Origin: Kiritimatiellia bacterium
GTDB taxonomy: Bacteria; Verrucomicrobiota; Kiritimatiellia; JAAZAB01
Direction: 5' to 3'
DNA: 64,000 nucleotides
Assembly (NCBI GenBank): GCA_040767085.1
Contig: JAXGPF010000003.1
Coordinates: 96,001-160,000, forward strand
This document shows, in pieces, positions 23,416 to 39,236 of this stretch. The translations under genes were made by a program, and so were the position numbers. Under the pieces are notes generated by a model. It saw only the letters and a program-made list of their open reading frames with translations, was not told the origin of the DNA and did no database searches. Each line of letters begins with the position of its first letter. Position 1 is the first letter of the stretch.

Positions 23416-23503
23416 ACCGAACAGTATTATTGAGCCTACTTCGCGAATACTGACGGGGCGCATGTGATTATGTATTTATAAATCACATGTGCGCTATTGT
23501 CAA
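23416..23503 (-). promoter_or_regulatory. attI-like site with cassette promoter, copy 1
   Basis: TTGACA(23503-23498)-17-TATAAA(23480-23475), then CGAAGTAGGCTCAATAATACT-GTTCGGT; 24 bp identical to 31964-31987. Confidence 0.7.
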
Positions 23504-26103
23504 ATGCTTAATCCAGCGCCGGATGGTACATTCTCAAATACCTTTAGCGCATCCCGCCGCGTTATGACCGTGTCGTAAAGACCGATGTCCTCGCCCTCGT
23601 GTTTGTTGATGCCGGTGTATCTCAGGCTGGAGTCTTCGTAACGCTTGAACTTGTAAACCGCGTCGTTCATCAGGGCGCTGTTGAACACGCCCAAGCTGAC
23701 CAGCAACTCGAAGTCCTTGACGGTGAGCCCCGTGACTTTCCTGAAGAGGCCGGGTTCAAGTTGTGTAATGACGTCCTTCAGGGTCCGCTCGCGGTAATCG
23801 GTCAGGTACATGAAGATGGGAATCCGCGTGGCGAATTTGATGAGCTTCTCCTGAATCTGTTTGCGCAGGCTCTTGTATTCCTTCTCCTCCTGCGAAAGCT
23901 CCTTCTTTTCTTCCGCGGAAAGCTTCTCGTCGTTGGCTTCCTTGCGCGCTTTCTTGACGGCCTCGGACTTGTTGATGATCGTCGCGATGTCTTGGTTCAG
24001 ATTGCGGAAACCCTCGATGTTCATCAGGGCGTCCATCGCCTTCTTATCAGCCATCAGGCGGCGCAAGGTGTCGTTATCCACATTGACCAGGAGGGCGCTT
24101 TCCCAGCGCCGCGCCAGCAATGTGGCCGTCGTACCGCTCATGGCCATGTCGAGAATCCCGGCGGCATCAATCTGTTTCATGGAACTGCCGTCGTAAGCCA
24201 GCACCGGCAGGAAACTGATGAACTCCTCGACCTTCTTTTCCGGGTTGACCTCATTCAAGTTCAACCGGCAACTGTAATCGGCAATCTGGCGCAATGCCCG
24301 ATCGGGGGCGAAGTCGAAGACGTAGCATTCTTCCTTGATGATCTGCTCGGTGTTCGGAGATGCGCCGTCCGGGTTGCGCACCGTCCAGGGGGATTGCACA
24401 CGGAACGCCGCTTGAAAATATGTTTCCGGGCTCGACGAGTTGCGCAAAATGAGAATACCCGTCCACGGTTTCACTGTCACTCCCGTGGTCAATTTGCCGC
24501 AGGAAAGCGTGATGGTCCTGGTGGCGAGCGGATCGTCCATCGCTTCCAGCACAGGCGGCAAGGCCGCGGCGCCGATCCCGGCGGCGCTTCCCGCCGCCAC
24601 GATGATCTTGTAGTCGTGATAGAAGCGGTTTTGCCTCTTCGCCAGCAGGTTTCGCATGGCATGACAGGCCGCCACGCTGGGCAAAAACCAGAAGGAATGC
24701 GAAAGCACTCCCAGGAGCCGGACATCCGAGAACGGCATCGGCGGCTTTTGCGCGCCCAGTTTCAGGTTGTCCACACTGGCCGGCATGAACGCGCCGCGAA
24801 TCAGGTCCAGCCATTTCTGCACTTCTTCCGCGTACCTGAATTTCGCCTTGTCCCCAATGCCCTCGGCGGAGAAGAACACATTCAAATCGAACTCATTGAA
24901 CTCACCCTGCATGGCGATATCCCGGATCGCGTCGGGCAGTTGGTATGTCAAAAGCACCATTCGGGGCAGCGGGGCATATGGGTTGTTTGGGCCGTTCCAA
25001 TACCGCTTGGCGCGCTGCTCGTCGGAATACGTCCAGTTGTAAATCTGCTCTTCAATGAACTCGCCCGACGCAATGGCCCGGAACGGCGTGCCGGACAGGT
25101 AAAGATACCCGTCCGTGGTGATCGGCATGATCGTTTCATCAAAATCCTCGATGCCTTCGCCCTCGGCGAATTTTCGTTCCTTTTCATCCTCCGACTCGAA
25201 AAGCTCCTTTGCGTTTTCGCGCCAGGCTCCGTAATGGTACTCGTCCAGAATCACGCAATCCCAATGCGTGGTGTGGACCCATTCGTTCTTGGTCTTGATG
25301 CCGCCGGTGCTGGGGTTGCGGCCCAGGTAGTCCTGGAATGAGCCGAAGCAAACAAAAGGCTTTTTCTTGTCCGCTTGCTCATAGGTCAGGCCGCCCGGCT
25401 TGATGAACTGCCAGCCCCGGAAGTCAACATGGCATTTCAAGTCTTCTTCCCAAGCGCTTTGAACGGCGGGCTTGAAGGTCAGAACCAGCACCTTTCGCCA
25501 GCCCATTTTTTTCGCCAACTGATACGCAGCAAAAGTCTTGCCGAAACGCATCTTGGCATTCCAGAGGAAATGCGGCGGCTTGTCCCGGTTGCTTTTGTCA
25601 TTGCGCCAACTGGCGAAATAGGCGGCCGTCTTCTCGACCGCCGCGACCTGTTCCGGGCGCATTTGGAAATCCAGCGACCGATTTTCCTCGTTCAATTGCC
25701 CGGTCCGGACTGCGATGATCGCCGACTTGACTTGGGCCACCGTGCAACGGAACCATTCTCCGTCGGGGTTCTTGATGCCGTTAACCCGCAGCATCCGGTG
25801 CACGTCGTGGTCTGTGAACACCGTCCCGTCATTCCGCATGGCGGATTCTTCGAGAACGATCCGGTACGGCGGCCGGCCGGGCTTCTTTGTCGGATACTGC
25901 TGGGCGACGCGGCCTTGGGCATTCACGGTTGTGTAGCCGATTTTGAGCAGCCCCGCATATTGTGGGTTCGTGTCCTCGTAGGCGTAGATTGTCGGCCTCG
26001 ATGCCGGGCGCGGAGGAAAGAACTCCGGTTCATCCGCAAATGAACGCGAATGAACGCCAATAAGGGAAGAGCCTTTCTTTGATTCGAGTCTAATCGCGCT
26101 CAT
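23500..26103 (-). CDS. T5orf172/GIY-YIG-like nuclease fused to SF2 helicase (restriction-like subunit)
   Basis: IYAY..LLKIGYT..RVAQQ..GEWF N-domain; Walker A AKMRFGKT, DEYH, LSGTP, YFQAAFRVQ. Confidence 0.85.
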   Translation of the reverse strand: MSAIRLESKKGSSLIGVHSRSFADEPEFFPPRPASRPTIYAYEDTNPQYAGLLKIGYTTVNAQGRVAQQYPTKKPGRPPYRIVLEESAMRNDGTVFTDHDVHRMLRVNGIKNPDGEWFRCTVAQVKSAIIAVRTGQLNEENRSLDFQMRPEQVAAVEKTAAYFASWRNDKSNRDKPPHFLWNAKMRFGKTFAAYQLAKKMGWRKVLVLTFKPAVQSAWEEDLKCHVDFRGWQFIKPGGLTYEQADKKKPFVCFGSFQDYLGRNPSTGGIKTKNEWVHTTHWDCVILDEYHYGAWRENAKELFESEDEKERKFAEGEGIEDFDETIMPITTDGYLYLSGTPFRAIASGEFIEEQIYNWTYSDEQRAKRYWNGPNNPYAPLPRMVLLTYQLPDAIRDIAMQGEFNEFDLNVFFSAEGIGDKAKFRYAEEVQKWLDLIRGAFMPASVDNLKLGAQKPPMPFSDVRLLGVLSHSFWFLPSVAACHAMRNLLAKRQNRFYHDYKIIVAAGSAAGIGAAALPPVLEAMDDPLATRTITLSCGKLTTGVTVKPWTGILILRNSSSPETYFQAAFRVQSPWTVRNPDGASPNTEQIIKEECYVFDFAPDRALRQIADYSCRLNLNEVNPEKKVEEFISFLPVLAYDGSSMKQIDAAGILDMAMSGTTATLLARRWESALLVNVDNDTLRRLMADKKAMDALMNIEGFRNLNQDIATIINKSEAVKKARKEANDEKLSAEEKKELSQEEKEYKSLRKQIQEKLIKFATRIPIFMYLTDYRERTLKDVITQLEPGLFRKVTGLTVKDFELLVSLGVFNSALMNDAVYKFKRYEDSSLRYTGINKHEGEDIGLYDTVITRRDALKVFENVPSGAGLSI

Positions 26104-26109
26104 TCGCGT
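26034..26109. repeat. Short-period palindromic repeat (CGCGAATGAA type) overlapping the helicase start
   Basis: CCGCAAATGAACGCGAATGAACGCCAAT ... ATTCGAGTCTAATCGCGCTCATTCGCGT. Confidence 0.7.
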
Positions 26110-26951
26110 TTCCCTATCCTCGACTGCTTTCCCGCCGGCGGCAGGAAGTTCTCGCCGGTCACTACCTTGCGCCCCGTCTTCTGCTCCAACTCCCGCCGCG
26201 CCCGTTTGGCGATGCGTCCGCCTTTCTTCCCGGCCTCGGCATTTTCGCCCATGCCGATCGCTTCCACGCTTTCGGCGATCTGGCGGGTGGACAATTCCGC
26301 CAGCGCGGTGAAGATCAGCTCCGCCTCGCTCATGTGATCACGCAGGTTCTGCGCCTTGAGCCCTTTAATAGCCTTATGCTTCTTGACCGAAACCCCGCTC
26401 CATTCCTGGTGGATGATATTGGTCAGGATGGAATATTCCTCCTCGCCTTTGATCTCGTGGTCCTGCCAATAATCGGTGAGCTTGTTGCGGGTTTCCTGCC
26501 CCATCATCCGCTGCTGAATCCATTTCTCGCTGCGGCCGTGCTTCTTCCAGTATTCCCGTGCCCGGTCCAGCGACCGCACCGGGTCGCTCATGTCCTGGAT
26601 GCGCTCATACCCTACCTTGGCCAGCCAGAGTTTGATCGGTTCTGCCCTGGGACTGGGGACGGATTGAATAATCCGCAGAAGTGTTTCAGGGTCAGCAACA
26701 TCCGTCAGATAGGATTTTCCGTCAGCCGCAGGCAGTTTCAGTCGGTTACATTTTGTAACCGACTCACTTCCCTCGCTTTTAAGCCGGTTTTTCAGGACTT
26801 TCCAGTAATTGCGGGCGGCCTGATAGTCCGGTTGCTGGATCAGCGCCGCGACGATGTCCACCACGGAGAAATACCAGGTCTCCGACTTCTTGTCGTAAAC
26901 GCGCCGGATTTTGAAATCCTCAAAGACAGCCAATGCTTTTTCGTTTGTCAT
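26100..26951 (-). CDS. Bro-N domain (antirepressor-like) protein
   Basis: IRRVYD...WYFSVVDIV...ARNYWKVLKNRL...LRIIQSVPSPRAEPIKLWLAKVG. Confidence 0.85.
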   Translation of the reverse strand: MTNEKALAVFEDFKIRRVYDKKSETWYFSVVDIVAALIQQPDYQAARNYWKVLKNRLKSEGSESVTKCNRLKLPAADGKSYLTDVADPETLLRIIQSVPSPRAEPIKLWLAKVGYERIQDMSDPVRSLDRAREYWKKHGRSEKWIQQRMMGQETRNKLTDYWQDHEIKGEEEYSILTNIIHQEWSGVSVKKHKAIKGLKAQNLRDHMSEAELIFTALAELSTRQIAESVEAIGMGENAEAGKKGGRIAKRARRELEQKTGRKVVTGENFLPPAGKQSRIGKRE

Positions 26952-26967
26952 GGTTGACCTGCCGAAT

Positions 26968-27150
26968 TATCCACAGATGACGCAGATTTTTGCAGATTAT
27001 TTTCGGTGGATCCGGTATCTGCGTTAATCCGTGGAATCAGCGAATTATTCATCTGCTTCATCCGGAATGATTATCCGCAGATGGCGCAGATTTTCGCAGA
27101 TTATTTTCGGCGGATTCCGGTATCTGCGTTAATCTGTGTAATCTGTGGAT
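26968..27150. repeat. Tandem palindromic units built from about 9-nt GCAGAT repeats
   Basis: CCRCAGATNRCGCAGATTTTYGCAGATT...ATCTGCGTTAATC twice; same unit at 33001-33130 and 34577-34750. Confidence 0.85.
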
Positions 27151-27152
27151 TA

Positions 27153-28758
27153 TTATGCCTGCTCATCGACCCCGCTTTCCGCCTTGTCATTATCCGCTGG
27201 CATTGGGCGGACAATGGAGGAAATAAAATCAATCTCAGCCTGCGTTAGCTTGAAATGCTTGTTAAGTTTGTCATCAGTCCATATTTCTGTCATTGGAAGT
27301 TGAGGAACGAAGGCGAACCGCTCCTTTGTGATATGTTGCGTGTTTTTCCGCAATCCAACCAAAAATCGGAAGAAGTGGGTTCGCATGTACGCAGCAAGGT
27401 GTTCTGCCTCGTCCTTTGTCTTGTATGACCCAATGACGATGTAAGTTTCCGTACAGGCACTGGGCGGGCTTGCCACAATAGGTTTGCCCATAATCATTCG
27501 AGGGTATTCCCGGGCTTCGCCGCCTTCGGACTTCCAGCGTGATCGTAACCCACATATGATGTCAATAACCTTCCAAAGATCAATCATATCGACGCCAACA
27601 GTAATGTCTGATTTCGGATCTTTTGGCCCTACTCGCCATTTCTGCCAACGCAAAATAATTTGATCACCTTGTCCTTCTGAGGCCGTCACGTAAGTTCTAA
27701 GTCCAAAATGGTTTTTGTCTAGCAGACACTTGCTCGCTCATGCGACAAAGAAGGATCTTTTCTTGACAAGGACCCTTCGTCCAAATGATTGGGAAACAGC
27801 CTTATTGAAGCGAGCAAACGTATGAAAGTCGGAAACTCGTTGAGAGGTAAGCGTAGTCGAAACAACGTCGTTCATCGTTATGCACGTTCGTGACTTCGAG
27901 CAAGGTCCACGAGTAATCACGCTCCCATAAGAAATAACATATTCCATCCGCTATAACCTTGACACCGGGAAATACGTCGGAAGCAATCGGATAATCAACA
28001 AGATGAGAGATACGTCGGTCGTGTAGCATTGCATCTCGGAACTCGTCAAGACCTTTGCCGCCAGCGAACCAGCGTGAGGGTATTATCATGGAAAGGAAAC
28101 GAGGGTTCAGCTTCTTGGCTTGCTCAACGAAGCGATTGTAGATGGGGGATGCCCCTGTGCTTTCGCCTGCATCACTCAATTGGTACGGTGGATTACCGAT
28201 AATTACATCAAATTTCATTTTGAAAATTCCCTCATGTTTGTCGGTGTGGATGAACTCATATGCATGGCTTTCATACTCTCGCCCGCGGTCGTACTCCTCC
28301 TTGCTGGCGCGACAAAACACACAACGGCCATTTACCCATGTGTGTTCCACTCGCCCGAAACGGATGTTGCCGGCGGGCTTGTCAAACAACTCACAGACGG
28401 AATATTTGCCGTTGGCGGTCTTGGAGCAATAGACGGAGCGGCGCGACAGCAGAGCGGTCAGTTCCGTAATTGCGAGCCCGTAGAGTTGATTTTTGAAGAT
28501 GTGGTTCATGCGCTGCAGGCGGTCAGGAATCTGGGCCTCCAGCCCCTTGTCCAGCCGCTTGGCGATCTCGCGCAGAAATACGCCCGACTTGCAACCGGGG
28601 TCAAGAAAGGTGGCTGTCTTGTCGCTCCAAAGTTCCTGCGGCAGCAGGTCCAGAATCCGGTTCACGAGTTGCGGCGGCGTGAACACCTCGTCACTACTCA
28701 AGTTGGCGATACAAGACAGCACATCCGGATTATAGTTGTCTGTGTTCATCTGCGTCAT
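27153..28758 (-). pseudogene. Eco57I-like adenine DNA methyltransferase, frameshifted (decay or indel errors)
   Basis: [29 protein letters not shown]-terminal CTETY...RFLV..RKNTQH in another ORF (27153-27689); breaks between about 27500 and 27950. Confidence 0.8.
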
Positions 28759-29194
28759 CCGCAGACCTCCTCTGTTTCAACCGCAGATAGCGCAGATGAA
28801 CGCAGATTGTAAACAAAGCGCTTGTACTCGAGTCGGATAGCGCCAAAGTTGATCAGCAGAGCTTTGTGCAGCCTGGATGCTTTCAGGTAGTTGATCACTT
28901 GTGCCTCCTCCGTCCCGAAAGCTGCTTCAGCGCCTTGAGTTCGACAATCACCGCTCCGGAGCAAACGTAATCGGCTTTGTAGAACGTGTTCAATGGCTTA
29001 CCGCGATAGAACACCGGCAGTTCCTTTTCGCGTTCGTAAGGGATGCCCCTGAACCGAAACTCGCGTTCCAGCGCTTCCTGATAGACTGCTTCCAGAAAGC
29101 CAGACCCAAGGTCTGAATGCACGGCCATAGCTGCTCCGATTATCGCGTATGTCTCCGCATCTTTATTACCGTTATCTGCGTCAATCTGCGTCAT
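28755..29194 (-). CDS. GxxExxY family protein (one frameshift near 28915)
   Basis: [25 protein letters not shown]...ADY...IVELKA, continuing as [11 protein letters not shown]...LLINFG in the next frame; the break is in a G run. Confidence 0.88.
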
Positions 29195-29852
29195 CTGCGG
29201 ATTCCTTTTTCCCCAACTCCAGGAAATGCATGGGCGGATATTCGCGGATTGGCGTTGGGATGAAGACGTCTTCCCCCAGATCGGAGAAAAGCGGCAGTTC
29301 CTTCATGCCCTCGTGCGTCAGCAGTCCGTGAAACGTGAAGTCCCTCCGTTTGAGCATGCTGCCGTTGACCGGCGACCATTCAGAAAATACGATATAATCC
29401 GGTTTTTTGCCGACTGTTTTCAAGGTCAGGGCGTCGCCCCAGATGATATTGCGCCCAAGGATGAAACGGACCGCCTCGCGGCATTTGTTCTTGGCGCGGT
29501 CCTCGAACAGCCGGGAATAAAAGTCACAATCGAACACGCCAAAAAGCCGGTGCCGGCACTGGTGGACATTGTCCTCCAGGATGTCAATGCCGTAGATCGA
29601 AGAGACGGCCAGGACGGCATAACGCTCGAAGTCCAGTTGCGACTTGCCGTAGCGCTTTTCCACCACGGCGAGTTTCCGTTCCAGAATGGCCGTCAGGAAA
29701 TTCCCATTGCCGCAAGCCGGTTCGAGGAAGCGGGAATCAATCCGGTCCGTTTCCTGTTTCACGAGGTCGAGCATGGCGTTGACCTCGCGTTTGCCGGTCA
29801 ACACCTCGCCATGCTCGGCGACCCGCTGTTTCGATATGACTTGCGATTCCAT
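29181..29852 (-). CDS. Short SAM-binding DNA-methyltransferase-like protein with no visible catalytic motif IV
   Basis: RVAEHGEVLT, FLEPACGNGNFL, IYGIDI, NIIWGDAL; no NPPY/DPPY. Confidence 0.8.
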   Translation of the reverse strand: MESQVISKQRVAEHGEVLTGKREVNAMLDLVKQETDRIDSRFLEPACGNGNFLTAILERKLAVVEKRYGKSQLDFERYAVLAVSSIYGIDILEDNVHQCRHRLFGVFDCDFYSRLFEDRAKNKCREAVRFILGRNIIWGDALTLKTVGKKPDYIVFSEWSPVNGSMLKRRDFTFHGLLTHEGMKELPLFSDLGEDVFIPTPIREYPPMHFLELGKKESADDAD

Positions 29853-29936
29853 CTGTGATTTATTTTCGTGGCCTGACTCACTCAGAAGCGCCATTTCACG
29901 TATCACCAGCAGGCTCGATGCTCTTGTTCGAGCGCT

Positions 29937-30107
29937 TTATACAAACGAGTCGCAATACTTCTGCCATTTCTGAGCCAAGAACTGCAACCTGCCTTGCTTG
30001 TAGACCGCCTTTTTGCTGTTCGTCTGTTGCGCCATATGAATGACATCGAGAAGAGTGTTTGCTTCTTTTTTAGAAATGTCGAGCTTGTAATATTTCTGTG
30101 ATGACAT
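29937..30107 (-). CDS. Small hypothetical protein
   Basis: MSSQKYYK... preceded by GAGGTGGG; no recognised motif. Confidence 0.35.
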   Translation of the reverse strand: MSSQKYYKLDISKKEANTLLDVIHMAQQTNSKKAVYKQGRLQFLAQKWQKYCDSFV

Positions 30108-30296
30108 ACCCACCTCTAACACCGGCTGCGGAATTGGGGCCTGTTTCAGTTTCGGCACAATAACTACGCGAGGTATTATGACTCTTTCGTTAAGGACGAT
30201 AAAACGATATCATCCAGCAAGTCCTCTGCGATCACGTTGGGTTGGGAAATCAGAGCTTCATATTCTTTTCTGGTCATCTTTTATCCTTTTGCTCGA

Positions 30297-30434
30297 ATCA
30301 GGATAGAGGGGCGACTCGCGACTGCCTCCCCACCCCGCCTCGTGACGACGCAGTTGCCCTTTCGCTTCCCTTCGGCTTCTCCTTCACCTGGCGTGGGTAC
30401 TTGCACACCACAAGTTACGTGCCATCCCCGGCAC
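30297..30434 (-). ncRNA. 138-nt group IIC intron remnant inserted in an attC site
   Basis: First about 110 nt nearly identical to the 5' end of 21384-21779, joined directly to CGCGAGTCGCCCCTCTATCCTGAT (domain VI end); domain V absent. Confidence 0.8.
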
Positions 30435-30498
30435 GCTCAGGCGCACCGGACGCCTGAAGCGACAGCGGAAGGCGGTACGGTGACGCCTGTTGTTCGGT
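30433..30498 (-). repeat. attC site split by the intron remnant (remaining TCGAG at 30292-30296)
   Basis: ACCGAAC AACAGGCGTCACCG...CGGTGCGCCTGAGC GT | intron | TCGAG. Confidence 0.8.
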
Positions 30499-30502
30499 TC
30501 GC

Positions 30503-31138
30503 TCATTCCATCAAGATTGCTGCAAGACCTTTTTCAGGATCCAGTATGAGTCCCGCCAGAGCGAGGAGCAATGCCAAACCCTGGCAGATGACGAGTTTGT
30601 TAGTCCAATAGCGCCGTTGCGCCTTCAGGTGCAGAATCCCGTGCTCGGTTTGCTTCACCATGCTGAAAAAGCTATGACTGGCAGTTCCAAGCAGGGCTAC
30701 CCTGCGAGCAGAGAGTTCGCGAGCTCTGTTTGCCCAATCAGTCGGCAGCGGTTGAACCAATTCGTCGGGCGGAGGCTGGCGGATTGAAGCGAGGAGAAGA
30801 CAAATTGCCTCAGTCATGCTTTCGAGATAAGCGTGTGCTGAGGCCGCTTCCATTTGGCGAACATCGGCGACGTCTTTGTCAGACTTGAGGACTTGGAGTA
30901 TCCGCTTCGCCTGTGCACTCGAAACGCTCTGCCAACTGACATCGGCTGCGCGAGCCACCGCCTGATTCGCCTCCGTATGGGCGATTCTCAGGTCAGCAAT
31001 CAGTTTTTCCTTCTTTTCGATTCTACTTTCAAATAATAGAGGCACGACTGAAAAGCCGACCGTGGCAACGAGCAAGAGCGCCGCGGACGCTACGAGGCAC
31101 AGAATGTGGATCAATGGGATTGCTTCGAGTGCTGTCAT
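30503..31138 (-). CDS. Hypothetical membrane protein (gene cassette)
   Basis: N- and C-terminal hydrophobic segments; bounded by attC sites. Confidence 0.65.
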   Translation of the reverse strand: MTALEAIPLIHILCLVASAALLLVATVGFSVVPLLFESRIEKKEKLIADLRIAHTEANQAVARAADVSWQSVSSAQAKRILQVLKSDKDVADVRQMEAASAHAYLESMTEAICLLLASIRQPPPDELVQPLPTDWANRARELSARRVALLGTASHSFFSMVKQTEHGILHLKAQRRYWTNKLVICQGLALLLALAGLILDPEKGLAAILME

Positions 31139-31157
31139 CCTTTCATCTTTCTCTTGA

Positions 31158-31217
31158 ACCGAACGTCGCAAATCAGCGGCGCGGTTTACCGCGTACGCTG
31201 GATTTGTCTTGTTGGGT
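31158..31217 (-). repeat. attC site
   Basis: ACCCAAC AAGACAAATCCAGCGTACGCGG-TAAA-CCGCGCCGCTGATTTGCGAC GTTCGGT; 60 bp. Confidence 0.85.
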
Positions 31218-31943
31218 TTCTCCATCTGTTGCGGTTGGAATGGCCTTGATTGCCTTCACACGTTGATCGTACTCGTACAGCGTGACCTTTATCTTCTGTC
31301 CTGTGTTGTCGCCTATGTATTGCGCGGCCGCGGCAAGCATGACGGGGAACACCTTTCTCAGGTCACCGGAAGAACCTGTGCTGAAGATGTCTGTCTTCCA
31401 AACCTGTTTCTCCTCTTCTGCCTTGCGGTACGCCGCAAGATCTAAAGCGTTGAGAGAAATGTAGCGGGTGAAGGTGACGTATGTTCCTGAGTATTGTCTG
31501 GAACCTACCACTCCATAGGTTGGGGTATGTGTTGTCGTCCCGGAATAGGTTGCGCTGTTTCCGTAGGAATACAGGGAACCGTATGTGTGCGACGAGGAGA
31601 CTCCAGTTTGCCCGTAAACGGGAGTCGAGTAGCTGTATTGATGTTGGGAAGGGTCAGAAATGTCGTAGTAGAGAAAGATGGCAATGTCAGCTTCGTCAAG
31701 ACCATCGGTCTTGATGAAGCCCTTCTGCTCAAGGGCACGATGGGTGTATGTTGCGAACTCCTGAAACTGGAGATCACCAGGGTTCACGCCCTTCTTTCCT
31801 GGAAACAAGAAGTACTTCCGGGCTGTGGGTTGGCCAGAACTGATGGAATCGATTCTTACATCGTAATGCGGCATCGTGGCGCAGCCAGAGCAAACCAGTA
31901 CAATCATCATTGGTACGATGGCCCATGACATGAAGTTCTTCAT
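31173..31943 (-). CDS. Lipoprotein, DUF4136-like (first cassette of the upstream array)
   Basis: Lipobox VCSGC; RBS GAGGAG; reads into attC. Confidence 0.75.
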   Translation of the reverse strand: MKNFMSWAIVPMMIVLVCSGCATMPHYDVRIDSISSGQPTARKYFLFPGKKGVNPGDLQFQEFATYTHRALEQKGFIKTDGLDEADIAIFLYYDISDPSQHQYSYSTPVYGQTGVSSSHTYGSLYSYGNSATYSGTTTHTPTYGVVGSRQYSGTYVTFTRYISLNALDLAAYRKAEEEKQVWKTDIFSTGSSGDLRKVFPVMLAAAAQYIGDNTGQKIKVTLYEYDQRVKAIKAIPTATDGETQQDKSSVRGKPRR

Positions 31944-31959
31944 TCTCTTGTCTCCTCAA

Positions 31960-32048
31960 ACCCAACAGTATTATTGAGCCTACTTCGTGAAATCTAACTG
32001 GCCGCATATAGCTGTGTCTTTTATAACCACAATGGTGGCCATTGTCAT
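31960..32048 (-). promoter_or_regulatory. attI-like site with cassette promoter, copy 2
   Basis: ATGACA(32048-32043)-17-TATAAA(32025-32020), then CGAAGTAGGCTCAATAATACT-GTTGGGT; the GTTGGGT is complementary to the cassette's own ACCCAAC. Confidence 0.72.
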
Positions 32049-32597
32049 ATATTTAATCTATTGACTATCAACTGATTATCCTGATCGCCTGCCTTCAAGA
32101 TCGGCTTTATGCATATCCATGAATTAGGCTTTATGCCGACAAACATCATAATCTGGATCAATGTAATTCATAAAGACTACCTGGAACGCTTTCTCGAAAA
32201 TATTTGATTATTTTAGGGATAGCTCCATTTTTTCAACACAGGCGCACACTGCTCGCAGTCAGATTACCTCAAAGCCATCCCCCATCTCAACGAAATGTCG
32301 AATCGGCAGCGCAAAACCAACGTTCATAACGCAATCCTGATTTATATCATTCGAACCGGATTATTAATTTATAGGACTGACCCCCTCTGTCTGACAAACG
32401 GTCATAGATGGGCTTGCCAGCGCGATAGTACGCCAAATGTTGGACAAAACTGACAACCAGTGGGTACTGGTTTCGGAATATGTCGGAATCGTATTTCATT
32501 CTTTGACACAACGTCGCGAGTCACCGGACAGTGTAAGACGCGCTCCGGCGTAGCGCACAGGGTCACAGGCGCACATGGTCAGACCTCAAATTAAAAC

Positions 32598-32828
32598 TTA
32601 ATATCTCATCCGCCGTGCCGCTCCAATGAGTTTATGTCTAACAATCGCCCGGCTGCCGCCACCCAACGCGCCCGTGTTTGATATTCCAATCTGGAACATC
32701 AAACGCGCAACATCTTGCTCGGGAATGGCGAACATATAATCTAGAGGGAACCGACCGCAGTTTCGTGCTACCGCTTTGTTGAGGTCTCCGTTGACTGCGT
32801 CGATTTCCTCTGTGGTTTCGATCTTCAT
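32598..32828 (-). pseudogene. ORF6N-domain fragment
   Basis: LNKAVARNCGRFPLDYMFAI...LMFQIGIS...GG. Confidence 0.6.
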
Positions 32829-32984
32829 CGCTCTGGCAGAACAACATTATCCAGCATTTTTTTAAATATAGATCAATCTCAGAAAATCGGCAATAAAATA
32901 ATTTTGATAAGTTCATGGATAACAAGTAATTATTACTAATTAGCATTGGGTGTTAATAACTTTACCCGGGCGCAGATGCACGGT

Positions 32985-33131
32985 CATCCACAGAAGATTT
33001 ATCCGCAGATTACGCAGATTTTCGCAGATTATTTTCTGAGGATCCGGCATCTGCGTTAATCTGCGTAATCTGTGGATTATTTCTCTGCTTCATCCGGAAT
33101 GATCATCCGCAGATTACGCAGATTTTCACAG
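32985..33131. repeat. GCAGAT palindromic repeat unit
   Basis: One full unit of about 104 bp plus the start of a second, matching 26968-27150. Confidence 0.85.
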
Positions 33132-33141
33132 GCACGTGTGA

Positions 33142-33726
33142 TCACCGCCGCGGTTTACCGCGTACGCCGGATTTGCTTTTTTGCGCTTTTAATTTCAGAC
33201 GTTCCCGAATTTGTTTGAATTGGTCGCGCATGCCTTCGGCGACAGACCATCTTTCGATTTCTTTGATGTCTATCTTATTATTGCAGGCTACGGCAACCGC
33301 TTGGTCAAGGCACTGTCGATCATGATCGTGATAGAACCAAGTGAGTCTGTCTTTGACACAGTCGGTGGGCGATATGATCAGGAGCATTCCAGTGGCTGTT
33401 TTAATCTTTAGAATGTCCTTAACAGGTTCTTCCCCGACGGCTGGGGGGCCTTGAGGAAACTCGATAAACAGGTCGGTATCCGGGTGTTTGAAATATCGTC
33501 CGTTTTCGGAAAATCCCAGTTCCTGCATTGCCGCGCGAAGCTCGCTGCGCTTGGGTGCCATTAGCGCAGTGTGTATCAGGTCCAAGTCCATTGACAGATA
33601 TTTCCCCCGGCTGTAGATTGAGACACAGGCCCCGCCGGACAGCACCACGTCTATGCCTCTGACGCGCAGGCGCTCCTGTATGAAAGCGGCAAGTTCCGCT
33701 CTGTCCATTTCGCTGATTGACTTCAC
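33142..33726 (-). CDS. Nucleotidyltransferase-fold protein (possible toxin of a TA pair)
   Basis: VVLSGGACVSIYS...SMDLD (GG..DxD); ends in an attC remnant. Confidence 0.7.
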   Translation of the reverse strand: MKSISEMDRAELAAFIQERLRVRGIDVVLSGGACVSIYSRGKYLSMDLDLIHTALMAPKRSELRAAMQELGFSENGRYFKHPDTDLFIEFPQGPPAVGEEPVKDILKIKTATGMLLIISPTDCVKDRLTWFYHDHDRQCLDQAVAVACNNKIDIKEIERWSVAEGMRDQFKQIRERLKLKAQKSKSGVRGKPRR

Positions 33727-34052
33727 AATGGTTTTCCAAGACGCCTGGGCCTGCGCCTGTTCATAATAAGTTTTTCTTTCAAGTCTTCAGGACAGAACGT
33801 CATCACCTTGACAAGAAGATTTTTAAGCTCCGCCAGGAACGGACAACGAGGATTGAATGAATACAACCTTGTCCGTCCGACAGACCGGCTGCGGAGAATG
33901 CCTCCGATCTCAAGTCGATCAAGCTGGTTTCGAATAGGCTTGTAATCAACGCCGAAAAAACGTGCTATTTCGCGTGGATAACCCTCTCCGCGGGCTGAAA
34001 TGAACAACAAGACTTGTTCGCAACTTCTTGAACCAACCAAATATTCCAGCAT
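33723..34052 (-). CDS. Winged-helix (ArsR-like) DNA-binding protein
   Basis: YPREIARFFG...IRNQLDRLE.GGIL.SR.VGRTRLY; 4-bp overlap with the downstream gene. Confidence 0.8.
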   Translation of the reverse strand: MLEYLVGSRSCEQVLLFISARGEGYPREIARFFGVDYKPIRNQLDRLEIGGILRSRSVGRTRLYSFNPRCPFLAELKNLLVKVMTFCPEDLKEKLIMNRRRPRRLGKPL

Positions 34053-34469
34053 TGGCCATACTCCTCAACCTTGCATTAATTGATGTCATGCATGCATCAC
34101 ATGATGCACTATTTACATCAATATACATCGGACATTTTTAACACGCAAGATTATTCTACCTGAATTTTGCACCGCGCAAGTTTGGCGCAGGGCGCGGCGC
34201 GAGGGGTGCCGCTGTATAAATATACCGCAAATCCCCGAGCAACAAAGCCCTGCACCAAAAACTTGTCCGCCATAGTCGGACGGCGGCGGATCGCGCGGCT
34301 GGCTGCCGGCGAATATTGGTGTTTCCGGAAAATTTACTTGTGTAACCATATGGGTGATAGCAAATAACTGTGCAAATATTAATTTGCACTCGCTATGATT
34401 GCTTTAAATCATTTCAACACCAATATTCGTGCAAAATTCAGGTTCTACAGAATTCCTGGTTCTGCCATT

Positions 34470-34544
34470 ATCCTGGTTTTTAACCAGCCGGTCGTTGATG
34501 TATTTATGCAGGACGCTCGACAACAGCGTTTGGTACGGCATCCC
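34470..34544 (-). pseudogene. C-terminal remnant of a second RHH antitoxin
   Basis: GMPYQTLLSSVLHKYINDRLV matches GLPYQTLMASILHRYAAGRFV of 21788-22108. Confidence 0.65.
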
Positions 34545-34576
34545 TTTACAGGCGCACAGGGCCAGACTTCAAATTA

Positions 34577-34750
34577 GGATTACGCAGATTTTCGCAGATT
34601 ATTATCAGAAGATCCGGCATCTGCGTTAATCTGTGAAATCTGCGGATTATTTCTCTGCTTCATCCGGAATGATCGTCCGCAGATTACGCCGATTTTCGCA
34701 GATTATTATCAGAAGATCCGGAATCTGCGTTAATCTGCGTAATCTGCGGA
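34577..34750. repeat. GCAGAT palindromic repeat, nearly two tandem units
   Basis: Same unit and same linker TTCTCTGCTTCATCCGGAATGAT as 33001-33130. Confidence 0.85.
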
Positions 34751-34893
34751 TTATTTCTTCCCATTGGACGCGTGGCGGTCAAGAGCCTGACCGTTCTACC
34801 AAATTCAGGACAATTACGAAAATATTAATAAGTCGGAACAGACGGCTCACGGCACGTTCGCCCTCCAGCGGAAGCAGAGCGGGACGGGGGCCG

Positions 34894-34976
34894 GTCCTGA
34901 GCTTGTCGAATGGGCGTCCCGGCTCCAACGGGAACAGAGTGCGAAGAGGGCTTGTCCTGAGCTTGCCGAATGGGCG
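34894..34976. repeat. REP-like GTCCTGAGCTTG(T/C)CGAATGGGCG, two direct copies
   Basis: Copies near 34894 and 34954; related reverse copy CCCTCGACAAGCTCGGG near 41124-41141. Confidence 0.65.
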
Positions 34977-36212
34977 TTACCGGTCCAGCCAGCGGCCGTC
35001 GAAGAGCAGATTGATGTCGCGCTGGATTTCCGCGCGCGTTACAAGCCAGCCGGCGCGGGCCAGGTCGAGGTATTTCTGGCTCAGGACGTCGCCGATGATG
35101 CCCCGGGAATGCCGCCATTTATAGATGAGCTGGTCGAGCACGCGGGCGTCGGAATGCTGGGGAATGAACGACAAACCGAGCATTTCCAGGCGCATGGCGG
35201 TAATCTCCCGGATGAGCGACGGGTTGTTCAGGAACCACCAGCAGCCGAATGGCAGCAGATTCTTGAACTTGCGCGCGGCCACGCAGAGCGCGTGCATGTT
35301 CTCGCGCGCCAGCATGGTCACCATGAACCGGACGTCGCCGAAATCCCGCGCCAGGTATTCCACCGTCTCCATCAGGGCGCAGCCCACGGAGTCGCCGGCA
35401 AGGACCAGGTCGGGGTTGACCAGTTTCCGGACGCCGATCATCATCGCCACGGGAATCCCGCGCTCGCGCGCGACGGGAATGGCCGCTTTGACCATGAGGT
35501 TTGTGATGCTGGATTCCACGTCGGGATAGCGGAAATCCGGCGGCAGACTGATGGCCAGGTAGCGCGCGTCCATTTTGTCGCACCACTCCATCAGGTACCG
35601 GCGCACTTCGGCCAGGGTCGGACCGGAAAGCGAGGTATCCGTCCGGTACCCCATCTGGCGCAGCCGCCCTGCCCCGGCCGGCCAGTTCATCAGGGCGCTG
35701 TCCAGGCGCAATACCGCCAGGAACCGGGAATCGCGCTGAAAGCCCCGCAGCCACACCGGCTGCTCCGCCGGATCCAGCGGATCGTTGGTCATGTAAACCT
35801 TGCGGATACCGGCCAAATCCAATACGCGGTCGGTATAGTCCCGGACATTCTGCCCGGCGAAATACTCGCGGTAGGTTTTCAGCGACCGCGCCGCGACATC
35901 CAGGCCCAGGGCGTCCAGCACCGTCAGCACCCCCCGGCAGGCTTCGGATACCGGCGAGCGTTTGACGAACAGTTCCTCCCAGACCAGTTCTGCCTGCCGG
36001 GCCTTGGGTTCCGCCAGGAAGTTCCGGCATTCCCAGTCCGGCCGGGCGCGCATGACTTCCGCCAGCAGGTAGTGATATGTCAGCAGTTCGTCAATCCCCC
36101 AGAGCAGCAACGGCCCCATGGCGGGATCGAAGGTATGGGTATGGATGTCGGTGATGGGCGTGGATGCCATTAATTCACTGACTGCCGCGCGTATTTCCGT
36201 TTCCTGGTTCAT
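34977..36212 (-). CDS. uxaC: Glucuronate isomerase-like amidohydrolase-fold protein
   Basis: ITDIHTH, WGIDELLTYHYL, GCWWFLNNP, QHSDARVLDQLIYKW. Confidence 0.82.
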   Translation of the reverse strand: MNQETEIRAAVSELMASTPITDIHTHTFDPAMGPLLLWGIDELLTYHYLLAEVMRARPDWECRNFLAEPKARQAELVWEELFVKRSPVSEACRGVLTVLDALGLDVAARSLKTYREYFAGQNVRDYTDRVLDLAGIRKVYMTNDPLDPAEQPVWLRGFQRDSRFLAVLRLDSALMNWPAGAGRLRQMGYRTDTSLSGPTLAEVRRYLMEWCDKMDARYLAISLPPDFRYPDVESSITNLMVKAAIPVARERGIPVAMMIGVRKLVNPDLVLAGDSVGCALMETVEYLARDFGDVRFMVTMLARENMHALCVAARKFKNLLPFGCWWFLNNPSLIREITAMRLEMLGLSFIPQHSDARVLDQLIYKWRHSRGIIGDVLSQKYLDLARAGWLVTRAEIQRDINLLFDGRWLDR

Positions 36213-36227
36213 ATATCACGCCCTCTC

Positions 36228-36285
36228 GTCTGTGTCATCCGCGGATTATTTTTTATCCACAGATTACGCAGATTTTCGCAGATTA
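36228..36285. repeat. GCAGAT repeat arms, partial unit
   Basis: TCTGTGTCATCCGCGG...CCACAGATTACGCAGATTTTCGCAGATT. Confidence 0.7.
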
Positions 36286-36483
36286 TTTTACCTGAATACG
36301 GCAAACGGAAAATCCTCTCACCCGCCTTCGTCAAGACTACGGTGGGCAAGCCCAAGCCACCAAGAAAGCACCAGCAGGAACTGCCGCATAGCAGCATGTT
36401 TTCCTTCACCGCTCGTCCTTCGTGGCTTAGTGTCTTTGTGAGATAATAAAGCGGGTTTCCACGGGAAGTTACTGAACCTGAAT

Positions 36484-37860
36484 TTATTTCTTCCCGCCCA
36501 ATACTTCGTCAATCGCCTCTTCAAAGACCCGGATGGACTCGCGCAGCGCATCCCGGGTGATCGTCAGGGGCGGCGCGATCTTCAGGCATTCCCCGCCGAT
36601 GCCGACAGGCGCAAACATCAGCAAGCCTTTCTGGAAGCAGGCGACGTTGATCCGCTGCGCCAGTTCGGGATTAGGCTCCTTGGTGCCGGGTTTGACCACC
36701 TGGATGCCGGCCACCAGGCCCTTGCCCTGAGTGCAGCCCAGCACGTCCGGGTACTTCTGCTGGATGCGGCGCAATTCGGGTATCAGGATTTCGCCCATGG
36801 CGGCGGCATTGGCCGTCAGGTTATCGCGCAACAGCACCTGCAGGTTGGCCAGGGCGGCGGCCACCGGCAGGGGCGAACCGGAATGGGTGGAAGTCATCGA
36901 GCCGGGGGCGTACAATCCCTGGATATCGCGGCGGCCAATCACCGCCGCGATGGGCAGCGAGGAGGAAATGCCCTTGCCGCAGGCAATCAGGTCCGGCGTG
37001 ACGCCATAATGCTGATAACAGAACATTTTCCCGGTGCGGCCGAACCCGGCCTGGACTTCATCAAAGCACAGGACGATGTCATGTTCCCGGCAGAATGCCT
37101 CCAGTTTTTTGGCGTATTCCACCGGCAGGAAGTCCGGCCCGATGCCCTGGTAGCTTTCCGTCATCACCCCCGCGACTTCTTCGGGCTTGATGTTCCGGTC
37201 GCGCAGGGTTTGCAGGAACTGGTCAAACGACTGGTTGGTGTTCTTATAGCCGTCGGGGAACGGGGTCTGGATGAAAGTCTGGTCGCTTTCCCCAAGCCAT
37301 TTTTTCAGCTTGGCCATGCCGCCGGCCAGTTGGGCGCCCATGGTGCGGCCGTGGAAGGCATTGTTAAAGGAAATGAAGTAACGTTTCCGCGGGCCATGCT
37401 TTTCCATGGCGTAGGTCTTGGCAAGCTTGATGCAGTTTTCCGTGGCCTCGCTGCCGGAACTCAACAGGAAAACCGTGTAATCGGGGGGTTTCGGCGCCAG
37501 CGACTGCAGGAGGGCGGTCAGTTCCGCGCGCTGCTCATGCACGAAAACATAAGTGGAAAGCAGTCCCTGGTTGATGATCCGGAGCAGGGCTTCGCGGATT
37601 TCAGGGTGGTTATGCCCGACATTCGTGATCAGCACGCCGGAGGACCAGTCCAGCCAGCGGTTGCCCCAGCGGTCGCTGACGGTGATATCCTCGGCCTTAT
37701 GCCAGACGATCGGCGGCTGACCCATCATGGATTGCGGCTCGGTCTGGCGCAGTTTTTCGAAAATCGGCAGGGATTCAGGCACCGGTAGCTTGGTTTTGAT
37801 GGTGCGGTACTTCGTATTGACATGCGGAACATCCACCGGGGTAAGATCGTAAACAGCCAT
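36484..37860 (-). CDS. Class III PLP-dependent aminotransferase
   Basis: SGSEATE, AFHGRT, FDEVQAGFGRTG, PDLIACGKG. Confidence 0.93.
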   Translation of the reverse strand: MAVYDLTPVDVPHVNTKYRTIKTKLPVPESLPIFEKLRQTEPQSMMGQPPIVWHKAEDITVSDRWGNRWLDWSSGVLITNVGHNHPEIREALLRIINQGLLSTYVFVHEQRAELTALLQSLAPKPPDYTVFLLSSGSEATENCIKLAKTYAMEKHGPRKRYFISFNNAFHGRTMGAQLAGGMAKLKKWLGESDQTFIQTPFPDGYKNTNQSFDQFLQTLRDRNIKPEEVAGVMTESYQGIGPDFLPVEYAKKLEAFCREHDIVLCFDEVQAGFGRTGKMFCYQHYGVTPDLIACGKGISSSLPIAAVIGRRDIQGLYAPGSMTSTHSGSPLPVAAALANLQVLLRDNLTANAAAMGEILIPELRRIQQKYPDVLGCTQGKGLVAGIQVVKPGTKEPNPELAQRINVACFQKGLLMFAPVGIGGECLKIAPPLTITRDALRESIRVFEEAIDEVLGGKK

Positions 37861-38051
37861 GGCAAAACCTCCTATGATAGCATGATTGCCTCATTCCCGA
37901 GCGGAAAAGAGGTAATATTTCTTATAGCAAACTGCCCTGCTATGTCAAGCAATAACCGCCAATCTGTCGTAAACAAATGACTTGGCCGCATAATTAACAA
38001 ATGATTTGTCCGCTTAAAGCTGTCAGGATGGTGCATTCAAAGGGGGGTTAT

Positions 38052-39236
38052 ATGGATGAATATCCGAAGGCAGCACTGGAGCGGGCAATGAAGGTACAGG
38101 AAGTGATCTTGCGTGCGATTGAAGGGCGGTTAATGTGGTGGGAGGCGGCGGAGATACTAGGTGTGAGCTACCGGACCATGCGGCGCTGGAAAGGGCGCTA
38201 CGAGCGGTATGGTTACGACGGGCTGCTGGATCGTCGGCGGAAGATACCGGGGCCGCGGCGCGTGCCCCTTGCGACGGTGAAGCAGGTGCTGAGGTTGTAC
38301 CGAGAAGAATACATGGATTTCAATGTGAGGCATTTTCACGAGAAGCTGCAGGCGGAGCATGGGATCGAGCTCAGTTATCAGTGGGTCAAGAGCGCCTTGC
38401 AGACGGCCGGGTTGGTGGCGAAGGCCCGGAAACGAGGGCCGCATCGGCAGCAGCGGGAACGGCGACCAATGGCGGGGATGATGTTGATGGTGGATGGCAG
38501 CACCCATGCCTGGTTGCCCCTGCTGGCGGGCCAGAAGCAGGATCTGATCCTGGTGATGGACGATGCCACCAGCGAAGTCTACACGGCCTATCTTGTGCCC
38601 CAGGAAGGGACATTAACGGTGATGAAGGGGTTGAAAGAAGTCATTATTAAACATGGGGTTTTCTGCAGTCTGTACACGGATCGTGGCAGTCATTTCTTTT
38701 ATACGCCCAAAGAAGGCGGGGCGGTGGACCGGCGTCAATTGACGCAAATTGGACGGGCGTTGCAACAGTTGGGGATCGAACATATTCCGAGCTATAGCCC
38801 CCAGGGACGTGGGCGAATAGAGCGGATGTTTAAGACCTGGCAAGGGCGCCTGCCGCAGGAATTAAGGCAGGCGGGAATCCGGACGATGGCCGAGGCCAAC
38901 GTCTATATTCAACAACAGTTTCTGCCTTCCTTCAATCGCAACATGAAGGTGAAGGCGCGGGAAACAGGAACGTGTTTCGTGCCTTGCGGTGAGCAGGATT
39001 TGGACAGCATTTTCTGTGTGCAGCATGCGCGAGAGGTTCAAAATGACAATACCGTGGCTGTCGGGAGTCGCCGCTTGCAGATTGGACCATCAAAATGGCG
39101 TTTCAGCTTCGCCAAGTGCCGGGTTAAAGTCTGCGAGCACCTCGATGGCACGGTGTCCATCCGTTATGGCCCGCATGTGGTTGGCCGCTACCAAGGACCG
39201 TTGAACATTTCGGCGTCGCTGGAGGACGTCGCATAA
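38052..39236 (+). CDS. DDE transposase (HTH + integrase core)
   Basis: DGSTHAW, MDDATS, LYTDRGSHF, SPQGRGRIERMFKTWQGRL. Confidence 0.92.
   Translation: MDEYPKAALERAMKVQEVILRAIEGRLMWWEAAEILGVSYRTMRRWKGRYERYGYDGLLDRRRKIPGPRRVPLATVKQVLRLYREEYMDFNVRHFHEKLQAEHGIELSYQWVKSALQTAGLVAKARKRGPHRQQRERRPMAGMMLMVDGSTHAWLPLLAGQKQDLILVMDDATSEVYTAYLVPQEGTLTVMKGLKEVIIKHGVFCSLYTDRGSHFFYTPKEGGAVDRRQLTQIGRALQQLGIEHIPSYSPQGRGRIERMFKTWQGRLPQELRQAGIRTMAEANVYIQQQFLPSFNRNMKVKARETGTCFVPCGEQDLDSIFCVQHAREVQNDNTVAVGSRRLQIGPSKWRFSFAKCRVKVCEHLDGTVSIRYGPHVVGRYQGPLNISASLEDVA

Follow-up and report, generated by a model that had tools for sequence, protein, structure and literature searches.

Does a small nuclease gene enclosed by inverted, periodic repeats make up a mobile element of its own? 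This question is raised by a 420-bp unit within a 64,000-nucleotide stretch of a Kiritimatiellia bacterium genome (contig JAXGPF010000003.1, positions 96,001 to 160,000; the whole stretch is called the window), in which a gene of the GxxExxY family lies between two arms built from the heptamer CGCAGAT. An earlier note on this DNA had proposed a minimal mobile element, whose protein acts on its own flanking repeats or whose arms form a paired RNA stem from which the gene is looped out. With modest confidence, we lean toward regarding the unit as one copy of a widespread selfish cassette bounded by terminal inverted repeats, with derivatives resembling MITEs (miniature inverted-repeat transposable elements) and a nuclease that probably recognizes phased heptamers. 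The proposal that GxxExxY gene and inverted periodic arms together form a minimal mobile-type element holds under a comparative check and is partly supported by it: the arms are general, the boundaries are sharp and gene-less or deleted derivatives exist, whereas a target-site duplication is missing and many copies are old vertical residents.

We first describe the window unit itself. Its left arm occupies + strand positions 28781-28807 (CCGCAGATAGCGCAGATGAACGCAGAT) and its right arm 29174-29200 (ATCTGCGTCAATCTGCGTCATCTGCGG), and the arm strings that had been claimed for the unit are the reverse complements of these positions. In a repeat search of the window, the arm pair formed an inverted repeat of 27 nt with 85% complementarity and 366 nt between the two copies. 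In each arm CGCAGAT occurs three times, the starts of successive heptamers being 9 and 10 nt apart. The window holds 42 copies of CGCAGAT against 11.6 +/- 3.9 after shuffling (42 was reached in 0/100 shuffles), and 12 copies of the phased pair GCAGATNNNGCAGAT with at most one mismatch against 0.28 expected. An arm detector based on three C[GA]CAGAT heptamers at 9-10 nt spacing, with at most 3 mismatches over 21 positions, gave 0 matches in 290 kb of shuffled sequence. The conserved unit is 3 nt longer than the arms on each side (RTC/GAY) and thus spans 28779-29202; the + strand end of the window 3' arm reads AAC where relatives show RTC. The arms are present as claimed, but they overlap the reading frame rather than flank it from outside, because the ATG lies inside the right arm (the encoded peptide begins MTQIDAD) and the second frame runs through the left arm to a stop at 28755.

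The gene within the arms is complete but frame-shifted. Its first frame (29194..28895) matched TIGR04256 with 94.4 bits (cutoff 35) and PF13366 PDDEXK_3 with 92.7 bits (cutoff 22), and a second frame (within 28964..28755) matched the same profiles with 33.4 and 29.7 bits. Completeness follows because the second frame matches the remaining profile positions 83-116. The frame changes between profile positions 82 and 83, leaving no single uninterrupted reading frame, and comparison with intact copies at three loci (L002, L004 and L005) reveals one base fewer beside a G run, between 28914 and 28913. This shift is either a real 1-nt deletion or an assembly error in the G run, and the window unit is probably a decaying copy of a widespread element. 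The PD-(D/E)XK-like motif that had been claimed is present in the window copy, with both GFLEAVY and D-x9-ELK. In an alignment of 50 homologues (A1, drawn from the protein matches listed below), D74 and K86 do not vary, and conservation of E84 is 90% or higher. A sequence search among solved structures, run up to E = 1, found nothing. In an AlphaFold model built from A1, the mean pLDDT (per-residue model confidence) was 84.3, with residues 1-8 and 132-144, the arm-encoded tails, below 50. The best match in a fold search was Cas4 SSO0001 (4ic1; E 1.7e-4, TM score 0.53), followed by Hjc resolvases, lambda exonuclease and a splicing endonuclease, so that the predicted fold is a generic PD-(D/E)XK core. 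PDDEXK_3 is the only open reading frame (ORF) of the unit, which lacks DDE, HUH and serine/tyrosine recombinase families; in profile and structure searches, the GxxExxY enzyme was neither an HUH nor a Y1 (IS200-like) transposase and hence is not a RAYT.

The family to which the gene belongs is large: a profile search over 1.84 billion representatives (E up to 0.001) gave 25,227 clusters at 50% identity. A tblastn search of a phage collection with protein P0012 of the family gave no match. The part of PMC3424549 that lists PF13366 gives its function as 'Unknown' and notes multiple transfers, in agreement with the claim of the earlier note that the family has no established function. Within the searchable literature, we found no publication tying GxxExxY or PF13366 to flanking repeats; NCBIfam/TIGRFAM curator comments might mention the context.

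Are the arms a general feature of such genes? A protein search yielded 1721 matches; the 120 listed share 69-86% identity and belong to Pirellulales, Hydrogenedentes, Marinimicrobia, Desulfarculus, Nitrococcus, Methylohalobius and others. With the window's own entry excluded, an arm-encoded N-terminal peptide of the type (MN)PQITQMDAD was found in 112 of the 119 listed homologues and an arm-encoded C-terminal peptide of the type NLRESAKSAD in 96; a few carry the peptide of direct orientation at this end instead. A genome scan then confirmed at least 593 of 601 candidate stretches, and the 80 best-scoring loci were analyzed together with as much as 10 kb of flanking DNA per side. Going by record titles, these loci span 18 phylum-level groups; D-x(8-11)-[ED]-x-K is present in 80/80 and GxxExxY in 78/80, and none has internal stops. 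With the gene placed on the + strand, arms in the CGCAGAT orientation were termed F and those in the ATCTGCG orientation R, and the nearest arm was taken within -100..+70 of the match start and -80..+140 of the match end. An arm lies beside the gene in 78/80 loci (upstream in 66, downstream in 75), the overall arm density being 304 per 1.135 Mb, and the canonical arm-gene-arm layout (F..R) is present in 46/80; the arms expected at other GxxExxY loci are thus found there. Most canonical loci share one register, in which F spans -5..+20 relative to the match start and R spans either -28..-3 or -31..-6 relative to its end. Ranking by tblastn with an arm-tailed protein might have biased these counts; this concern is answered because the canonical rate does not fall with rank (22/40 in the upper half, 24/40 in the lower).

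Shortened forms of the unit were found in the window and elsewhere. The detector called 14 arms in the window, at 26972-27147, 28738-28807, 29174-29199, 33004-33133, 34619-34748 and 36258-36283. At 26972, 33004 and 34583, facing arms are separated by a 19-20-nt loop, and a 187-nt two-hairpin unit (arm-loop-arm-linker-arm-loop-arm) is common to these three window sites, loop and linker sequences included (Table 1). Folded as single-stranded DNA, the window hairpins reach -22.5 to -27.8 kcal/mol (z -7.6 to -9.0); Rfam 15 over 26000-37000 returned sub-threshold miRNA-precursor hairpins only (at most 25 bits against gathering thresholds of 70-100). Gaps from an F arm to the next R arm in the 80 loci and the window (n = 113) are bimodally distributed, with 30 below 30 nt, 26 of 34-256 nt, 48 of 361-423 nt and 9 longer, and a GxxExxY match lies inside 48/48 of the gaps of 361-423 nt. 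A short form present in two copies at L022 (10691-10838) matches the first 73 nt of the full unit by its nt 1-73 (92%) and the last 69 nt by its nt 80-148 (94%); another at L002 (3772-3909, two copies) matches both ends of the full unit at 86-87%, and a third at L005 (5656-5735) retains an arm and the last ~30 nt of the gene. Since these short forms match both ends of the adjoining full copy, they are internal deletions of it. Internally deleted forms and gene-less hairpins thus derive from full units, are tandemly amplified and occur at several sites. Gene fragments also adjoin full copies in L005, L022, L060, L076 and L077, and protein P0121 consists of two copies read through.

Cargo other than GxxExxY was found between arms in none of the 80 loci or the window. 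Six-frame translations of the window searched with a narrow and a broader profile contained no GxxExxY gene elsewhere, and six-frame profile searches of the flanks of L001-L080 (L081-L089 lay outside this set) gave no further or more distant one. Two other candidates were considered. Long gaps (window 33108-34644; L012 794-2620) look like unrelated neighboring arms rather than cargo units. An integron cassette with an attC-like hairpin was rejected, the cargo always being of the GxxExxY family; no integrase search was made in the flanks. In a 6.5-Mb chromosome (L009, 9992-11306), three full units of ~443 nt each stand head to tail, with junctions of 21 nt between detector-called arms and 17 nt between extended GGAT...TC ends.

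Next, we examined the ends of the unit and the nature of the arms in 47 full elements. Outside the first heptamer, information content amounts to ~2, 1.6-1.9 and 1 bit at three positions (consensus RTC) and falls below 0.4 bit beyond them, at both unit ends. A consensus scan of the unit gave no convincing promoter or terminator of its own. With the window left out of the translation analysis, 36 elements have a gene frame that runs on through the 5' arm, whereas a stop blocks it between arm and domain in 9 and within the arm in 2; the gene's stop codon follows the 3' arm in 29, lies inside it in 9 and precedes it in 9. Consequently, the 5' arm is untranslatable with the gene in 11/47, and in 18/47 all or part of the 3' arm comes after the stop. 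All three phases relative to the gene occur (5' arm, 33/9/5; 3' arm, 33/13/1). The arms, kept whether translated or not, are a nucleic-acid feature and not a protein feature.

Distant members of the family carry phased repeats of other words. Three tblastn queries against plasmids gave 8 records and 10 places at 28-57% identity to P0012, 9 of which were analyzed (a third Gemmatirosa place was left out), and repeats of CACAGAGG, CACAGAGA, CGCGAAG, CGCGGAT and CGCAGAGG were found there. The inverted flanking pair scored above all 200 shuffles in 3 of the first 8 plasmid loci: Bacteroides finegoldii, with CACAGAGGA three times on each side (21 against a shuffle maximum of 11), Bernardetia with CACAGAGA (16 against 13) and Sphingomonas with CGCGAAG (15 against 11). 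Plasmid 1 of Gemmatirosa kalamazoonensis has two paralogues with different words, CGCGGAT and CGCAGAGG, each of which forms a hairpin unit directly downstream of its gene (L083 1884-1954; L089 1347-1374 and 1884-1961). L085 has a 25-nt direct repeat on both sides instead, and L081 an 11-nt inverted pair only, at the level of the best shuffle. At the protein level, strictly 3-residue-periodic tails are present in 20 of the best 150 diverged representatives, against 0.4 for shuffled tails and 1 in cores. P0216, which belongs to these 20, begins with PITPITPI and ends with IGVIGVIG, tails that can be read as another word translated on both strands. Repeat words are clade-specific, and the co-variation of protein and repeat that had been predicted is seen at the level of the family, in that distant GxxExxY genes carry different phased repeats. 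The L089 Gemmatirosa gene is itself frameshifted.

These observations suggest a mechanism. The element consists of a gene for a PD-(D/E)XK nuclease of ~125 residues between terminal inverted repeats of ~30 bp, each reading RTC and then CGCAGAT-N2-CGCAGAT-N3-CGCAGAT. The nuclease, probably as a multimer, would bind heptamers that follow each other at intervals of one helical turn, on the same DNA face, and would then cut at or near its own arms or hairpins. Such cutting may copy or retain the element in a homing-like or REP/RAYT-like manner without target duplication, and gene-less hairpins would be served in trans by intact copies. That the nuclease recognizes the heptamers is probable, judging from their association, from the mirror-image triple sites and by analogy with REP/RAYT, insertion sequences with their MITEs, and homing systems.

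In addition to lying between genes, the unit can be accommodated within one. A search for longer proteins gave 45 matches; the GxxExxY domain stands at the N-terminus of 23 and the C-terminus of 18, is duplicated in 1 and lies internally in 3. Fusion partners are heterogeneous (Fic, HsdM, HsdS, cytidylyltransferase and others), a picture compatible with read-through where co-directional genes are closely packed. The three internal cases (P0162, P0163, from a candidate-phylum bacterium, and P0164) are LepA proteins. PDDEXK_3 occupies residues 90-203 with arm-type peptides on either side (...PAQMVADDTQISAD and NLRSSASYPRSSAQIE...), the insert separates the G1 motif AHIDHGKST from DTPGH, and the GTP_EFTU match falls in two stretches. 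From these protein sequences, a whole arm-gene-arm unit appears to sit in frame inside the LepA GTPase domain.

If the arms pair, they might do so in RNA. In an RNA-level intervening sequence, transcribed together with the host operon, the arms would form a stem that an RNase III-type enzyme or the encoded nuclease cuts, separating or regulating the flanking messages; ORF-containing intervening sequences between inverted repeats in 23S rRNA genes would be a parallel. We consider this explanation unlikely, although several observations are consistent with it. Units lie inside operons and are strongly co-directional with their neighbors: by a crude longest-ORF call in 72 loci, both neighbors are on the same strand as the unit in 47 and both on the opposite strand in 5, and annotated plasmid loci are co-directional in 6/6. 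A hairpin formed by the arm remnant 28738..28763 and 28783-28806 holds GGAGG, the ribosome-binding site of the next gene (a methyltransferase), in its loop and the ATG in its stem. The arms also close the fold of the 440-nt window transcript, pairing in both minimum-energy and centroid structures (z = -3.99), so that the RNA stem suggested earlier as looping the gene out is thermodynamically possible; specific support for it is lacking, as paired heptamers do not covary more than unpaired ones. CACAGAT is found throughout both arms in L028, L052, L063 and L065 and, except for one deviating unit each, in L064 and L073. In 46 distinct elements, all six heptamers show mutual correlation in the G/A state of position 2 (r 0.40-0.76), and values for paired heptamers (0.57, 0.40 and 0.64) do not exceed those for unpaired ones (e.g. 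0.76, 0.69 and 0.67). Among 138 unit pairs, mismatches of the G.U type (12) and of the A.C type (11) do not differ in frequency. Spacers are barely complementary, the likeness in cognate against non-cognate arms being 0.59 vs 0.44 and 0.40 vs 0.32 in full units, with no excess in short units. In LepA, moreover, three diverged proteins preserve the whole unit as an open, in-frame stretch, which would be needless if it were removed from RNA, and clades retain the phasing of a short word and not any stem. Conservation applies to the 7-nt word, to its occurring three times at intervals of about one helical turn and to the mirrored layout, and not to individual base pairs; six binding sites therefore fit better than a selected stem.

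Genomic contexts of the unit were characterized by running Pfam on 125 flanking ORF pieces. In the window, the unit lies in a restriction-modification operon, co-directional with both methyltransferase neighbors; the upstream gene has its stop codon within the unit, from which the downstream gene takes its start. This operon (23500-29906) is also present in L005 (3810-8262) and L037 (858-6154), with the unit at the same place. Between L005 (Thermodesulfobacteriota) and the window, neighbors are 60-81% identical and the unit 71-73%; L037 (Puniceicoccaceae) shows 50-79% identity to the window operon, and in L004 (1-1536) a ResIII gene adjoining the unit is 85-88% identical. In the window, L005 and L037, the unit is about as diverged as its neighbors. 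Annotated plasmids carry the unit between fabD and fabG (Sphingomonas), after radA (Bacteroides) or after ade (Bernardetia). Across phyla, the protein reaches 70-86% identity. Its tree requires 38 phylum-label changes, against a minimum of 17 and 54.8 after shuffling, and groups loci by site: five sdh loci with support 100, the V-ATPase pair plus L020 (the flanks of which yielded no V-ATPase domain) with 99 and 6/7 glt loci with 86, L047 lying unresolved outside. The element can persist for long at one operon site, travel with an operon between phyla and sit in frame in a universal gene.

Such persistence could also mean that the nuclease has been domesticated for housekeeping or defense, the repeats serving as operators or as REP-like stabilizer or terminator hairpins after movement ceased. 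Fixed sites within families or orders, together with intact catalytic residues, would fit this explanation, as would the restriction-modification operons that house about 20 of the 80 loci (hsdM-X-hsdS/RhuM or beside ResIII) and the window unit, whose neighbors match PADLOC MTase, type IIG and PDC-S13 models. However, the host operons are functionally unrelated (glt, sdh, his, ATPases, fab and restriction-modification), and PADLOC 2.0 returned 0 families for P0012 and the window ORF. Tandem copies, fragments, internal-deletion derivatives, broken copies such as that of the window and the in-frame unit inside LepA also speak against domestication, which we regard as improbable.

The order of events might be reversed, with a gene cassette that lacks its own ends inserting into the loop of pre-existing palindromes as some insertion sequences target REPs. 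Gene-less hairpins and the non-canonical arm orientations of 17/80 loci are compatible with this idea. By contrast, the register of arms and gene is fixed across phyla and short forms hold both gene ends between their arms; they are therefore deletion products and not empty targets, and we give the idea little credence. Chance complementarity, or conserved terminal peptides that happen to be complementary, can practically be dismissed: most arms do lie within annotated reading frames, but shuffles never reach the observed counts, arms are kept untranslated and in all three phases, and gene-less copies occur.

The selfish-cassette reading itself has to be weighed against several results. The link between protein and arms is one of association only, and the 80 loci are the best-scoring of at least 593 and not a random sample. 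Non-canonical layouts make up 34/80 loci: R..F in 7, F..F in 5, R..R in 5, a single arm in 15 (none..R 9, none..F 3, F..none 2 and R..none 1) and none in 2. The phased 6-mer arrays beside 7/9 distant plasmid genes come from a small sample and from a generic detector with a false rate of 5-20% per region. The nearest thing to an insertion polymorphism is a short, apparently arm-like insert before RALIFDSLYDD, present in P0163 and P0164 and missing from P0162, seen at the protein level only. Many copies have the look of long-standing, vertically inherited residents and not of active movers: site clades with mixed phyla indicate long vertical residence plus occasional transfer, and the unit stands at one place in a shared operon, so that part of its cross-phylum spread is hitch-hiking. 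Finally, a search for target-site duplications of 2-8 nt at offsets 0-5 in the 47 elements gave nothing above shuffled pairing, which makes classical cut-and-paste with staggered cuts unlikely. Together with strong co-orientation, this result argues against ordinary cut-and-paste transposition; single-strand, homing-like and recombination-based routes are all compatible with the data. The two loci scored as armless, L030 (149-847) and L031 (9821-10519), encode identical proteins in two Lentisphaerota records (Oligosphaera ethanolica), and were scored so because their nearest arms, 647 nt apart, are far from the gene.

How does the unit compare with known systems? REPIN/RAYT systems, the subject of PMC3116915, PMC3337134 and bioRxiv 10.1101/2021.07.10.451892, likewise combine a small gene flanked by inverted short repeats, dispersal of the same repeat as gene-less intergenic hairpin doublets, which the unit also shows, and largely vertical, long-term inheritance. 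They differ in the enzyme (RAYT is an HUH/Y1 transposase, the unit's protein a PD-(D/E)XK nuclease), in the position of the gene, which in the unit lies inside the hairpin with short forms as its internal deletions, and in the repeat (one palindrome in a REP, three phased heptamers in an arm); the GxxExxY gene, moreover, occurs in many copies and phyla with cross-phylum identity of 70-86%. With insertion sequences and MITEs (reviewed in PMC10969869), the unit shares terminal inverted repeats with sharp ends around a single enzyme gene and non-autonomous short derivatives that keep both ends at several sites. Unlike them, it has no target-site duplication, none of the DDE, HUH or serine/tyrosine recombinases and a size of only ~420 bp, and it is strongly co-oriented with host genes. 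The unit thus resembles known kinds, both a terminal-inverted-repeat element with MITE-like derivatives and REPIN/RAYT, with a real chance that it represents a new class.

Three further systems share single traits with the unit. Intervening sequences of 23S rRNA (Leptospira type), for which spread between species has been proposed, contain a small ORF annotated as 'four helix bundle / 23S rRNA IVS protein' and bracketed by inverted repeats inside a transcribed unit; the host of our unit is a protein-coding operon or ORF and not an rRNA gene, and its ORF belongs to another fold family. Rickettsia palindromic elements are inserted in frame in protein-coding genes, where such repeats are tolerated like the unit in LepA. 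They are not known from more than one genus, nor is a cognate gene known for them, whereas the unit has a gene and is not confined to one genus. Free-standing homing endonuclease genes also place a small nuclease gene between conserved genes, with persistence at a site and occasional transfer, but they are not defined by phased terminal repeats and are not known to spawn hairpin derivatives.

A broader proposition, which we put forward tentatively and with more doubt than belief, is that GxxExxY genes overall are the autonomous members of an unrecognized bacterial mobile class that has a minimal PD-(D/E)XK nuclease as its sole enzyme, with clade-specific recognition of phased heptamer arrays at the element ends and co-directional insertion into transcribed DNA, free of target-site duplication and even in frame in essential genes, and that they seed short, periodic intergenic palindromes in many phyla. 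With the gene linked to a defined DNA partner, what was an annotation label becomes a system open to testing, with a protein of ~125 residues, a 30-bp three-heptamer site and natural short substrates. If the nuclease mobilizes or retains the unit, it would represent a new enzymatic route for mobile DNA and a compact, sequence-programmable DNA-binding module, and it would explain periodic intergenic palindromes, odd 'fusion' proteins and periodic N- or C-terminal tails in databases. Annotation is affected as well, as the arms supply start or stop codons to host genes, including the two methyltransferase genes of the window.

Table 1. Features of the window (positions and strand) and recurrent host contexts of the unit, denoted X, at the other loci
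Feature	Position or loci	Strand	Remarks
GxxExxY/PDDEXK_3, first frame	28895..29194	-	99 aa; GFLEAVY and D...ELK; profile positions 2-82
GxxExxY, second frame	28755..28916	-	profile positions 83-116, then arm-encoded tail; stop at 28755
5' arm (gene-proximal)	29174..29202	-	GAY/RTC end and three CGCAGAT, spacers GA and TGA in gene sense; contains GxxExxY ATG (at 29194) and stop codon of upstream gene (29181-29183)
3' arm	28779..28807	-	three heptamers, ATCTGCG in gene sense; translated in the second GxxExxY frame
Remnant of a further 5' arm	28738..28763	-	20 nt past 3' arm; provides start of Eco57I-type methyltransferase gene
Two tandem gene-less hairpin units	26972..27147	+	arm-loop (19-20 nt)-arm, 33-nt gap between detector-called arms, arm-loop-arm
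One gene-less hairpin unit and a solo arm	33004..33133	+	loop and linker as at 26972
Two tandem gene-less hairpin units, first arm truncated	34583..34748	+	loop and linker as at 26972
Solo arm	36258..36283	+	
Upstream host gene	29181..29906	-	methyltransferase-like N-terminal domain; stop inside arm; 14-nt overlap with GxxExxY start
Downstream host gene	27802..28758	-	Eco57I-family methyltransferase; probable C-terminal piece 27689..27153
Bro-N / PDC-S13 gene	26951..26100	-	PADLOC candidate model PDC-S13, E 2.5e-118
T5orf172 and ResIII gene	26103..23500	-	window restriction-modification operon
gltB-X-gltD	L027, L029, L038, L047, L053, L054, L056		
sdhA-X-sdhB	L041, L045, L076		L033 upstream only, L061 downstream only
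V-ATPase B-X-D	L025, L026		
F-ATPase gamma-X-beta	L065		
hisG-X-hisB	L052, L064		
Restriction-modification operons	~20 loci		hsdM upstream; RhuM, hsdS, HsdR or ResIII downstream

Several minor observations concern the host operons. The start of the Eco57I-type gene in the window (28722-28765) consists of the arm remnant plus ~5 codons of the GxxExxY 5' end, and the L037 homologue has its own, different start. The methyltransferase is apparently split into 28758..27802 and 27689..27153. The window operon is common to loci from three other phyla at 50-88% amino-acid identity; the Eco57I-type methyltransferase is missing from L005 and the Bro-N gene from L037. The contig of L054 is labeled Bifidobacteriaceae and has a Verrucomicrobiota-type gltB-X-gltD context with a protein in the Verrucomicrobiota clade, which looks like a binning or labeling problem. 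All 14 window arms fall within a 10-kb stretch of lower G+C content (26000-37000; 0.47-0.56 against 0.58-0.65 elsewhere), which coincides with a run of minus-strand genes. Just beyond this repeat-rich stretch, an ORF on the + strand (38001-39236) encodes helix-turn-helix and IS481-type leucine-zipper transposase domains.

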